Assembly: GCA_951406725.2 (NCBI GenBank)
Contig: OX597817.1
Span: 164,362,001 to 164,426,000 of the forward strand
DNA from: Octopus vulgaris
Taxonomy: Eukaryota
Reading direction: 5' to 3'
Length of the DNA: 64,000 nucleotides
Below the pieces are notes generated by a model. The model was not told where the DNA came from. It saw nothing but the letters and a program-made list of their open reading frames with translations, and did no database searches. The translations under genes were made by a program, and so were the position numbers. Positions 55,979 through 63,660 of this stretch are shown piece after piece; the first letter of the stretch is position 1; every line of letters starts with the position of its first letter.

Positions 55979-57207
55979 CATAGGCTTCTTTCAGTTCTGT
56001 CTACCAAATCCTTTCGCAAGACTGTGGTTGGCCTGGAGTTAGCGTAAAAGATATCTGTCCCAAGATGCCTCACTGCAGGACTAGAACTTGAGACCACATG
56101 GTTGGCAAGCAAACTTCATAACCACACAACCATGCCTGCATCTATGTTTTTCTAACAAATACTTTTCACCCTTTTCTACTTTCACTTTTAAACTTACTTA
56201 TTAACTGATAATTCTTTCTGCCATGTGCACAAAGCCTGAAATTTTATGGGAGGTGACTCATTGACAACATCAGCACCAGTACTTGACTGGTACTTATTTT
56301 GAACTTTTACAGGCTGTTTTGTGTATTAAAAAAAAAAAGATTGAAGAAGGACGAAAGGCAAAGTCAGCCTCAGCAGAATTTGATCTCGGAACAAAAAGAC
56401 AGATGAAATGTCCCAAAGCATTTTGTCTTGTGTGGTAACAATTCTGCCAGCCCACCACCTCTTTTTATTAACTAATAATCCCTTCTGCTATAGGCACAAG
56501 ACCTGAAATCTGGGGGTGCGGGGATAGTCAGTTACTCAACTGGTGCTTACTTTATTGACCCCGAACTCAGAACATGAAGACAGATGAAATGCCACTAAGC
56601 ATCTTGCCTTGTGTACGAATGATTCTGCCAGCTCACCACCTCATTTAATTAATTAATAATAAGAACTATTTTCACTAATCCTTTCTACAATAGACATAAT
56701 GCCTGAAATTTGGGGGGAAGGGGCAAGTCAATTACATCGACCCCACACCCCAGTACTCATCTAGTACTTAATTTATCAACCCCAAAAGTACGAAAGGCAT
56801 AGTTGACCTCAGCGGAATTTGAACTCAGAAAGTAGTGGTAGACGAAATACCGCTAAGCATTTCGCCCGGCATGCTAACGATTCTGCCAGCTCAACACCTT
56901 CTATTTTCACTAATCATTCCACATACATCACCAGAATGTTAGGTAACTCCTTCTTCAATCTTTTTCTTTTTTTTTTTTATACACAAAACAGCCAGTAAAA
57001 GTTCAAATTGAACTACTTTGTTTGTTTTGGAGGAGCCAACTGTGGTCACAGGTACTCTACTTCCCCCACCTCCTCTTCAGATTATATAATTTAAAAATAA
57101 GTTTCTTCTCCACCTCTGCTATCACCTTTGCTCGTATACTCTCTTTTCATTTGGTGACTAAAGCACCAATCACATTGTTCTCTCAATGATACACATGAAG
57201 CAGTAGG

Positions 57208-57238
<31 letters not shown>

Positions 57239-57671
57239 ACAGACCTGTCGTTCTGCTTATTGTGTATGTGTGTCTGTGTTTTATATCAATAGAGAAAGCT
57301 GAGGTGTTGTCATGAACATCAGTTGTTTGTACTACACTGACCTGAGTAAGCCTCATTAACTCAGTATTTGTTCCTCGCACACATTTCGTACACCTTCAAC
57401 TTCCATGTGTGATGCCGACTTTAAAACATGGACCTGGATATACCCCTTTTCTCAGAAGGAGATCTTATCCCTCAGAAAGATCTAACCACACTACTAAAAC
57501 TACTACTGCTACAGGTAATTATCATAATAATAACAATGACATTTTTCTTACATGAACATAAAAAAAAAAACTGATTTTTTTTTTTTAAAGGTTTGGATGG
57601 GGGAATTTGTGGTGATCATGCCTTGCTGCTTGACATTAATGAAAGCAGTTCCAGTTCAGTTAGTGAGTGAA

Positions 57672-57719
57672 ACTGGTTGGTGCACTGACTGAGAATTTAG
57701 CACCAAATCTAATCAGTTG
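57672..57719 (+). ncRNA. Candidate Mir-29-family pre-miRNA (3p TAGCACCAAATCTAATCAGTTG, 57698-57719)
   Basis: Mir-29 seed AGCACCA and the 3' AATCAGTT are conserved. The 5' arm ACTGGTTGGTGC pairs with it, and CNNC (CCAC) lies at +17 (57736). The duplex has a large central bulge. Confidence 0.5.
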
Positions 57720-57773
57720 CCTCTGAATTATGGATCCACTCAAACAAATCAATTTTCTAAGTGCAGCAACATA

Positions 57774-59752: not shown

Positions 59753-62346
59753 TATAACATATTTTTTACTTTTATTTTCATTTATATTTTGGGGCGTGGC
59801 TACGTGGTTTACAAGTTTGCTTCCCATCCACATGGTTTCGGGTTTAGTTCCATGTCGTGATACCTTGGGCAAACGTCTTCTACTGTAACCCCTATAACCT
59901 CAGGCCAACCCAAGCCTTGTGAGTGGATTTGGTAGACAGGAGGTGAAACGAGCCTTTTGGTGTGTGTGTGTGTGTTTGCTTCTTTCTTCCACCTTGTCTT
60001 GACCTCATGTAATAGTTGTACATAAGTGTCACTATCATACAAGCAGGGTTATTCATTTCCAATATTCTGTGAGAACATGTCTGGTGATGGGGAAATATTA
60101 CCTTGCTTGGAAATGGGTGGCAACAGGAAGAGATCTGCCTCAGTAAACTCCTTCTGACTCATACAAGCATTTGAAAGTAGATATTAAAATGATGATGATG
60201 ATCTGCTGAAAATCTAATTTTTACCTAACTCATTAACCCTTTCGTTACTGTATTTCTTTTGAGATGCTCTGTGTTTCTTTCAATTATTTTAAATATAACA
60301 AAGAATTTAGTAAAATAACTTAATTATCATTAAGCTAGTGCTAAGAACATAAATTGTGGCTAAGGTTTGGTGGAAGATTTTAATTCAGAACTTTTGGAAA
60401 CAAGACATTTGTACGACAGACCCAGAGCCGATTTCAGCCGGGTTGGTAACGAAGGGGTTAAATATGATAGGGAGATGTGTTTGAGGAAATTCTTTTGTTA
60501 CACTACTTTGTTAGGGAGAGCAGATTTGCAGATGTTCTTTTTTGTTGTTTTAAAACTAAATTTCTAGATATAGGCATAGCATTGGCTGTATGGTAAGTAG
60601 CTTGCTTACGAACCTCATGTTTCTGGGTTCAGTCCCTCTGTGTGGCACCTTGGGCAAGTGTCTTATACTATAGCCTCGGACCGACCAAAGCTTTGTGAGT
60701 GGATTTGGTAGACGGAAACTGAAAGAAACCTGTCGTGTATATGTATGTGTGTGTATATGTTTGTGTGTCTGTGTTTGTCCCCCCCAACATCTCTTGACAA
60801 CCGATGGTGGTGTGTTTACGTCCCTGTAACTTAGCGGTTCAGCAAAAGAGACCAATAGAAGTACTAGTCGTGGGGTCGATTTGCTTGACTAAAGGCGGTG
60901 CTCCAGCATGGCCACAGTAAAATGACTGAAACAAGCAAAAGAGTAACAGAGAGTATATACAGCTGGAATGGAGACTTTTAGAAGAGAATACAGGACAGTG
61001 TGTGGTCATTCATGTATGAGGAGGATGTGTATGTTTTGAGAAGGTGTGTGGGAAGGTTGTGTGGGTATAAAAGTTGAACGGATAGATCCTTGTGGTTCTC
61101 TAGAATTACAAGTTCTAGAGTTGTTTTTATACACTGAAAAGGCTTGGTGACCTGACAGGTAATCTATTAACCAGTATTTTTGCATTGTTCTGTAAGGAGG
61201 TGTTGATTATTTTGTGTATAAGTGGGTATAGAAAATAACTGTGATTTCATCCACTTTTTTTTTTTTTTTTTGTTGTTGTTGCTTGTAAGCAATTATTTCT
61301 TATTAACGTGGTTCTTGAGTTTAAATATCTGGATTCCATTGACTTAAGAGACTCAAGTCTCATCAGATTTTTGTAGTGTCATTTATCAGGCTATTTAACC
61401 TCCTATTTCTATCTAAAGTCGATATTTTCTAGGATGCTGGTCAAAGATCTGTTATTGCATGATTAATAGTACACCCTAAGGAGAAACTGAAAACACGGTG
61501 CTATTCTTTCTTGAACTTTTACACAAAATCTGATGTCTGTATCTATAAACTTAAGATTTTTTAATTTTTATTTTGACTACCAGCTGCATGAATTTGCAAA
61601 ATTATAAATAACAGCTGAAAGTTACACTTATCCGGCTGTCAATGTTCTTAGCCTGTCTTCTAGAGCATTGCTTTCTAAAAGAAAAATATAAAGTAACTTG
61701 AAAACAGGAAACTGATTTAACCCTCTCGTTACCAACCCGGCCAAAACCAGCTCTGGCTCAGTAGTATAAATGTCTTGTTTTCATTAGTTTTCCATTAAAA
61801 TTTACCACCAAACCTTAGTCACAATTTATGTTCCTAACACTAGCTTAATGATAACTAAGTTATTTTACTAAATTCATTGTTATATTTAAAACAATTGAAA
61901 GAAATTTTGAGCATCTCAACATAAATACAGTAACAAAAGGGTTAAAGTGACATGAAATAAAGGTTCTCACTGTGTGGCACCTTGGGGAAGTGTCTTCTGC
62001 TATAGTCTTGAGCCTACTAAATCCTTGTGAGTGAATTTGGTAGGTGGAAACTGAAAGAAGCCTATCAGATAAATTTACATGTGTGTTTGTTTGTTTGTGC
62101 ATGTGTGTGCATGCATATCTTTGTGTCTTTGTGTATCCCCCACCACCAACTGACAACCGGCATTGGTATGTTTATGTCCCCATAACTTAATTGTTCAGCA
62201 AAAGTGACCAATAGAATAAATACAAGGCTTAAAAAATAAGTACTGGGGTTGATTCATTCAACTAAAAATTCTTCAGGGTGTTGCCCCAGCATGGCCACAG
62301 TCTAATGATGGAAACAAGTAAAATGATAAAATTGATCATTATCACC

Positions 62347-63660
62347 CTTGTCAGTTTATGTCCACTTGAGAGAACAAACCGGATTTCAACCCAGCAGATC
62401 ATGCTGCAAGCAAATATTCACACTGTGCAACATCGTGGAACAATGCATGGAACACCAAAGACCACTAATAATAAACTTCATTGATTTCAAAAAGGCGTTT
62501 GACTGTGTGCATAAAGAAACTCTCTGGAAGATTGCAAAAGTGTATGGAATACCAGACGATTACATCAGTCTGCTTAGCAGTTTCTACTACAACACAAGCT
62601 GCTACATTTGAACAGAGTATGGATACACGGGTTTTCTTAAGAATGTCACTGGAGTACGACATGGCTGTCTCCTGTCAACATTGTTGTTTCTGATGGTCAT
62701 CGATTTTGCTATGCAAAGATCAATGGTGAGGGTCCAGTTAACAAACTTGGATTTCGCCAACGACATTGCCCTGTTGGCTGAGAATCACCCAACATTACAA
62801 GAAATAATAACAAAAATGGGAAGGGAAACGGCAAAGACTGGGTTGAGAATCAGCAGTTAAAAAATGAAGGTAATGCAAGTTGGGAAACAAGTAGAAAGTG
62901 TACGAATGAAAGTTGGACAAGAACCAGTTGAAGAAGTTACAAGCTTCACATATCTGGGAAGCATAGTGACAAGCAACGGCGATGCAAAAACAGAGGTAAG
63001 CTGCAGAATTGGCAAGGCATCGGCAGTATCTAGAAGACTGACAACACTTTGGTGTAGCAGTAACATAAGTACAGAGCTGAAGGTTCCCTCTCTCTTGGAG
63101 AGGCACAAGCACTTACACACACACATGTACGCACACAGCAGTAACTCCTGCCTACCAAATTCAATTACAAGGCTTCGGTCGGCCCGGGACTATAGCAGAA
63201 GATGCCTGTACAAAACAGCAAAACTGCCAATAACAATCTGTGCAACTGAAACCTGGAGGATAACAGCAAAAATTGCCCACCAACTTGACATACTTCATCA
63301 GTGGTACCTTAGAAAAATCCTAAGAATCACTTAGAGATACAGCATAACAAATGATGCCATTCTCTAAACAGCAAGAGTAAGGCACTTGCATGCAATTGTA
63401 ACTAAACAATGAATGAGAATGGCATGGCTGGACACATACTAAGACTGCCAGAAGAGAGGCCTGTCAAAACAGCCATGGGCTAGATGCTGCTGGAAGGTAA
63501 GAGAAAAATAGGTCAGCCAAGGAAAACATGTAGTACCTTCTATTGAAGACCTACACAGACTGAACATCACCTGGGAAGAAGCATACTTGTTGGCCAGAGA
63601 CAGATAATTGGCGATCACTGACTGCACAATATGCCGCTCAAAGGCACTAATGGACCTAAG
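62347..63660 (+). mobile_element. 5'-truncated, frameshifted RTE-clade LINE reverse transcriptase
   Basis: QTGFQPSRSC..QIFTL..IVEQCMEHQRPLIINFIDFKKAFDCVHKETLW, LDFANDIALL (YADD-like) and VTSFTYLGS...RIGKAS. A SINE-like piece is inserted at ~63085-63205. Confidence 0.92.

Follow-up and report, generated by a model that had tools for sequence, protein, structure and literature searches.

Does the genome of Octopus vulgaris hold a third, strongly altered Mir-29 gene inside the intron of a protein-coding gene, or does an intronic stretch merely resemble one? The question is raised by the window analysed here, 64,000 nucleotides of contig OX597817.1 (positions 164,362,001 to 164,426,000), in which the original prediction had placed a miR-29-like 22-mer on the 3' arm of a hairpin. 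It had read the site as a lineage-specific Mir-29 paralog whose processing competes with splicing or, on the opposite strand, as a site that triggers miR-29 degradation.

The miR-29-like 22-mer and its host intron

The 22-mer was found where it had been predicted, at 57698-57719 of the plus strand, and carries the seed AGCACCA at nt 2-8 of the predicted 3p arm. Two canonical Mir-29 precursors of the same genome, L009 and L010, lie 276 kb apart on contig C11, and the identity that had been claimed with lophotrochozoan miR-29 holds against the L009 mature: 17 of the 22 positions are the same (nt 1-8, 11 and 14-21), and the differences are those at nt 9, 10, 12, 13 and 22. The 22-mer starts with U, and four of its five changes fall at nt 9-13, facing the 6 nt that are missing from the star-like arm. 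It occurs once in the genome when up to two mismatches are allowed. The looser pattern of seed plus AATCAG is found at 16 genome sites, where about 21 are expected by a hand estimate from base composition; two are the true Mir-29 genes, and 13 non-Mir-29 sites carry it besides the candidate. One site with this pattern, L005 (G000:C6:30020654, minus strand), reaches 18.4 bits under the Mir-29 model, more than the candidate, and its short-window fold is without a star arm.

The other landmarks of the prediction are all present, namely ACTGGTT beginning at 57672, the donor GTGAGT at 57663-57668 and a CNNC motif (CCAC, 57736-57739) 17 nt past the predicted 3' cut. A CNNC stands at +16 to +18 by chance in 11.9% of 4,000 random contexts, and at +16 or +17 in eight of nine true Mir-29 precursors. 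Around this motif L009 and L010 have a near-identical 14-nt stretch, some 12-26 nt past the mature. Both the basal UG and the apical UGU are absent from the sequence at the candidate's predicted cuts. In the literature, neither the 19-mer nor the names Ovu-, Obi- and Npo-Mir-29 occurred among the matches listed, and an entry for the site may already exist in MirGeneDB; searches for a cephalopod Mir-29 sequence list, and for KLHL24, intron, miRNA and octopus together, returned nothing.

The host is a KLHL24-like BTB-BACK-Kelch gene on the plus strand. The BTB-BACK-Kelch coding sequence is carried by two exons lying 22.7 and 27.1 kb downstream, whose product is 100% identical over 370 aa to the Octopus 'kelch-like protein 24'. 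The upstream coding exon at 57412-57514 (34 codons plus 1 nt, phase 1, donor GT at 57515), when fused to the BTB exon, gives the N-terminus of the annotated isoform X1 (exactly in P0045, nearly so in P0044). Contigs of runs X17 and X20 show no differences over this exon and diverge from the window sequence at 57514; they hold 2,382 and 411 more letters past this point. An X1 contig continues into the intron; for all these contigs the direction is taken from record numbering and the kind of run is a guess. Of the runs listed by a search, none is on record as RNA, and their shares of 0.13-0.27 are about those that the exon would give by itself. None of the four runs, of 24, that were compared with the window covers 57672-57738, a gap that carries no weight, since one of the four also misses the conserved exon and some records are dropped by a filter. 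Since the exon is spliced to the BTB exon on the plus strand, the hairpin is sense-strand intron, and the 22-mer lies 184 nt downstream of the exon within a 22,693-nt intron.

The peptide core of the same exon (PGYTPFLRRRSY) can be aligned with the N-terminus of P0056, a member of a cuttlefish-type cluster, and the extended form of the KLHL24-like protein seems, from these sequences, to be conserved among coleoids; the different N-termini of the remaining members of that cluster suggest alternative first exons. Mobile elements are also found in this region. The host intron contains a LINE-like open frame of 657 aa that codes for endonuclease and reverse-transcriptase domains (L019:692-2662), the window has a broken reverse-transcriptase piece at 62336-63334, and a SINE-like repeat of very high copy number at 56600-56900 is common to all four runs compared.

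Between the coding exon and the hairpin lies a candidate 72-nt cassette exon (57591-57662), open in the host frame with phase 1-1 and followed by the GTGAGT donor. Its candidate acceptor region (57559-57590) comprises a T-A11 run, a branch-point-like CTGAT, a T tract and AAAG. Under a rule drawn up post hoc, after the candidate was known, no other in-frame stretch of the 22,693-nt intron with a branch motif qualified, and the antisense control gave none. Its use as an exon was not confirmed, and it is missing from all seven proteins of the octopod cluster. The T-A11, CTGAT and T11-A at 57559-57587 form a predicted 12-bp homopolymer hairpin over the acceptor's pyrimidine tract, with the branch-point consensus in its loop.

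The predicted hairpin and the splice donor

The fold that had been proposed earlier, in which ACUGGUU pairs with AAUCAGU around a 6-nt bulge, is disfavoured: its energy is -16.4 kcal/mol and its share of the ensemble 1.5%. The preferred fold has no gap and a central internal loop; it reaches -24.8 kcal/mol and 98% of the ensemble in a 97-nt window, and drops to 39-87% in four wider windows. In this ungapped fold the partner of the 22-mer's 3' end is GUGAGUGA. By these models the two attractive registers exclude each other: the homologous one is predicted not to form, and the one predicted to form skips ACTGGTT.

The predicted 5p (star) arm spans 57666-57687, where alignment to nine true precursors and a block score identify ACTGGTT at 57672-57678, then GGTGCA at 57679-57684. 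The predicted 10-nt loop (57688-57697) has no apical UGU and, on sequence comparison, is unlike the loops of L009 and L010. The two sides of the predicted basal stem lie at 57650-57665 and 57720-57734. The 5' side spans the end of the candidate exon and the GTG of its donor, with pair probabilities of 0.77-0.99 in a 101-nt window and 0.37-0.88 in wider windows; that the basal stem takes in the GTGAGT donor, as had been proposed, is thus true of the preferred fold as predicted.

The stability of the hairpin is ordinary (z = -0.48; 60 of 200 shuffled sequences fold as well). Its duplex has 14 of 22 positions paired in the ungapped register and 13 in the MFE structure, compared with 16 in L009. 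Over nt 3-20 the candidate pairs at 12 of 18 positions, the same as L009, while the other eight true precursors pair at 14-16. At 54 nt the precursor is shorter than the nine true precursors (56-64 nt), and its length and its loop of 10 nt lie within the limits for a microRNA, which for the loop is at least 8 nt. A criterion of Fromm from 2015 reportedly asks for at least 16 nt paired between the arms, more than the 14 found here. The microRNAs of MirGeneDB are reported to have 19 +/- 1.6 paired nt between the arms (PMC11701709). When the 22-mer was placed in 4,000 random flanks, 13.8% paired as many bases and 0.45% reached its duplex energy; duplex, basal stem, energy and CNNC came together in 3 of the 4,000. 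CAGTT is present in four copies in 101 nt, where 0.17 are expected, a surplus that favours chance pairings. Between the 3' half of the 22-mer and the branch-point region the long-range pairing probability is 0.0.

Resemblance to Mir-29 genes and its chance expectation

A scan of the window at Rfam gathering thresholds gave no matches, and among L018-L020, L009 and L010 only L010 passed. With the Rfam mir-29 model (RF00074) the candidate scores 14.3 bits against a cut-off of 46.7; the two true Mir-29 genes score 60.7 and 43.4 bits, the lower value being that of L009, itself weakly paired (12 of nt 3-20). Other Rfam matches in the genome, L036 and L037, proved to be repeat-like hairpins. With a model (R1) of nine true precursors, seven from metagenomes plus L009 and L010 (alignment A1), the candidate scored 13.2 bits (E 0.08 in 14 kb), and under default filters in 259 kb it was not reported at E <= 10. 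It was returned by nhmmer with an E value of 1.3 in 214 kb, yet as the top match of the Mir-29 profile there.

On the star side, the 5' arm looks like a Mir-29 star from which the 6 central nt are missing: ACTGGTT and GGTGCA, aligned with a 6-nt gap, score 18.8 bits, which 2 of 30,000 random sites reach, and ACTGGTT+GGTGCA..GA matches the L066 star at 15 of 17 aligned positions with one clean 6-nt gap. Scored without a gap, the arm gives -5.9 bits against 29-34 in the true precursors, and lacks a conserved full-length star. When the 5' arm was compared by plain local alignment with the L009 and L010 stars alone, the result was not significant (p 0.47). The Mir-29 star of a snail is nearly identical to the L009 star (PMC12261956 supplement), which indicates that real paralogs keep the whole star, unlike the candidate arm; in two snail small-RNA tables, canonical miR-29 forms were the only ones with the seed AGCACCA.

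An ancestral Mir-29-P1/P2 cluster has been reported (10.1101/2021.09.01.458616), and Ovu-Mir-29-P1 and -P2 are listed in the non-exhaustive Table S4 of a curated study of 18 tissues (PMC9699675). The pair on C11 accounts for these two names and fits the ancestral cluster. The candidate has in common with that pair the seed at nt 1-8, nt 14-20/21, the 3p position, a seed-facing GGTGC, the CTGGTT block and a CNNC at +16/+17. It differs in four central changes, a star that is short of 6 nt or in another register, the 54-nt precursor, scores of 13-14 bits against 43-61, its place on another contig, and a loop and flanks without homology (best p 0.02 of 24 tests against L009 and L010). CCTCTG follows the mature as it does in L010, with an uncorrected p of 0.02. 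The neighbourhood shares nothing with the Mir-29 loci of C11 but simple repeats. Of the 67 loci that a pattern scan of metagenomes produced, about 31 are animal Mir-29 precursors and the others look like chance matches; none of the 67 had the candidate 22-mer or a KLHL signal, and no ortholog was found among them.

How often, then, would such a site arise by chance? The 22-mer scores 14.7 bits, against 34-37 for true matures, and about 4,600 genome sites are expected at that level, 545 of them with an intact seed. For Mir-29 alone, joint resemblance of mature and star is expected 1.3 times per genome, or 0.3 times if the seed is intact, on an independent-base background that under-counts, as is seen from the 184 seed-facing TGGTGC hairpins in the genome against about 78 by hand estimate. 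If every part must equal the candidate's, the rate is 0.015 per genome. The combination of star blocks and seed, a pattern picked after the site was seen, is unique in the genome. The basal stem, the CNNC and the sense position lower the chance expectation perhaps 50-fold. About 46 other conserved microRNA families are known (PMC9699675), and these, with the after-the-fact criteria, bring it back up to about one site of this kind per genome. Real paralogs that are dispersed and heavily changed are probably similarly rare. The candidate falls short on three of the features tested for membership, and to class it as Mir-29 would call for small-RNA reads.

Competing readings of the locus

From a chance expectation of about one site per genome, and altered paralogs about as rare, follow the strengths that we give to five readings. 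Our judgement is evenly divided on whether the resemblance is coincidental, and chance appears slightly likelier than a third, altered Mir-29 copy. A chance site would leave the transcript as part of the spliced intron and be degraded, releasing no microRNA; its marginal hairpin would stem from a local cluster of CAGTT and ACTG words, and its match would be the expected best site of a 2.8-Gb genome. The low family-model scores, a joint score expected 0.3-1.3 times per genome for one family, the ordinary fold with its short and poorly paired precursor, the rarity of the star-homologous fold, the loop and flanks, the true stars conserved whole from snail to octopus and the snail small-RNA tables all argue for chance, but so many features coincide (star blocks, structural set, all parts together) in a pattern that is unique, if post hoc, with changes clustered across from the 6-nt gap of the star arm, as many pairs over nt 3-20 as in a true paralog and the top profile match in 214 kb. 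A working but weakly processed third Mir-29-seed microRNA we consider, on the modelled fold, unlikely though by no means far-fetched. A Mir-29 copy would have inserted in the intron, lost 6 star nt and come to pair its arm with the donor region in a shifted register. Cleavage by Drosha would fall at 57666/57719, and Dicer would free a 22-mer, co-expressed with the host, that has miR-29 seed targets in common and a different central pairing, while the donor of the 72-nt exon would be blocked during processing. This is favoured by the sense, intronic position, the U at nt 1, a star that starts with A, the 10-nt loop, the CNNC at +17, a perfect 7-bp seed stem, the rare star blocks and structural set, and changes limited to nt 9-13 and 22. 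It is opposed by the 14 pairs, a 4-nt symmetric unpaired run, an interrupted basal stem, the missing UG and UGU, the drop of the fold in wider context, and the C11 pair, which already explains the two curated names. Arthropods have diverged intronic Mir-29-seed paralogs, miR-998 and miR-995, that are like the candidate in seed, altered centre and placement in an intron of a protein-coding gene; they are read-supported and conserved. For a diverged Mir-29-seed microRNA in an intron, miR-998 offers a precedent (PMC4109884). A decayed duplicate, truly homologous, whose duplex was broken and whose processing was lost through the 6-nt star-arm deletion, is rather unlikely in our view: the match to the L066 star across a single gap and the CCTCTG of L010 point to it, but neutral decay should not keep nt 1-8 and 14-21 yet wipe out loop and flanks, nor is any neighbourhood held in common with the C11 loci. 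The earlier claim of a Mir-29 paralog survives in part, in its sense intron, seed, star-like blocks, CNNC and L009-like pairing over nt 3-20, and is countered by family-model scores, total pairing, the missing flank homology and a chance expectation near one. Its link to the coleoid microRNA expansion is loose, as that expansion is reported to consist mainly of novel families, 90 in number, to which 94 of its 164 genes belong (PMC9699675).

The stem might also be a splicing element that masks the GTGAGT donor, with a 24-codon, serine-rich cassette exon mostly skipped and an incidental likeness to miR-29; judged from the predicted pairing, this is improbable. The exon is strong-looking and in frame, donor positions +1 to +4 are predicted to be paired, an A/T-run hairpin lies over the acceptor tract and the recorded isoforms skip the exon, but the donor pairing is unremarkable (rank 70 of 123 among GT[AG]AGT sites) and 57591-57662 is a candidate exon only. 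Competition between processing and splicing, as originally envisaged, needs an exon that is present in no recorded protein. In splice-site-overlapping (SO) miRNAs such as miR-34b the hairpin base spans a splice site (PMC3794580; PMC6097652), as predicted here for the donor of the candidate exon; in one study of SO-miRNAs in coding genes, loss of Microprocessor left exon inclusion unchanged (PMC6097652), which weakens a model of competition with splicing even if the microRNA is real. An antisense transcript that triggers miR-29 degradation in the manner of the Nrep/libra site (TDMD) is, from its sequence, highly improbable. The minus strand could pair with the L009 mature at nt 1-8, 11 and 14-21 and, in the 3' part, with L010 at nt 14-20, which gives an 8mer seed site, central mismatches and eight (L009) or seven (L010) contiguous 3' pairs, beyond the seed plus at least six that TDMD asks for. 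It resembles in these respects the Nrep/libra site for miR-29b, although its 3' pairing is weaker and starts later and its transcript is hypothetical; the validated triggers described there mostly have at least six contiguous 3' pairs, which start at nt 12-13, and energies of -9.6 to -17.1 kcal/mol (PMC10899785). The pairing here begins at nt 14, and its 3' energies of -8.2 (L009) and -7.7 kcal/mol (L010) lie outside that range, although methods may differ. The locus is, moreover, an intron of a plus-strand gene, and 150 filtered frames, of 157 over about 84 kb, yielded no minus-strand Pfam family, although a non-coding RNA may be transcribed there. Seed plus AATCAG is shown by 14 non-Mir-29 sites, candidate included, and the star-like arm is left unexplained. 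The antisense claim found no support.

If the resemblance is due to chance, the locus calls for caution, since seed, 3' match, hairpin and CNNC can coincide about once per large genome. It is quite doubtful, but conceivable, that the octopus has a third Mir-29-seed microRNA, a dispersed copy minus 6 star nt that was rescued by pairing with a cassette-exon donor and whose release is coupled to exon skipping. Should it be real, a known family would gain a member that annotation by covariance models passes over at 13-14 bits, and a microRNA would have outlived a star-arm deletion through a change of register. It would also offer a direct test of coupling between Microprocessor and splicing in a cephalopod ubiquitin-ligase adaptor gene.
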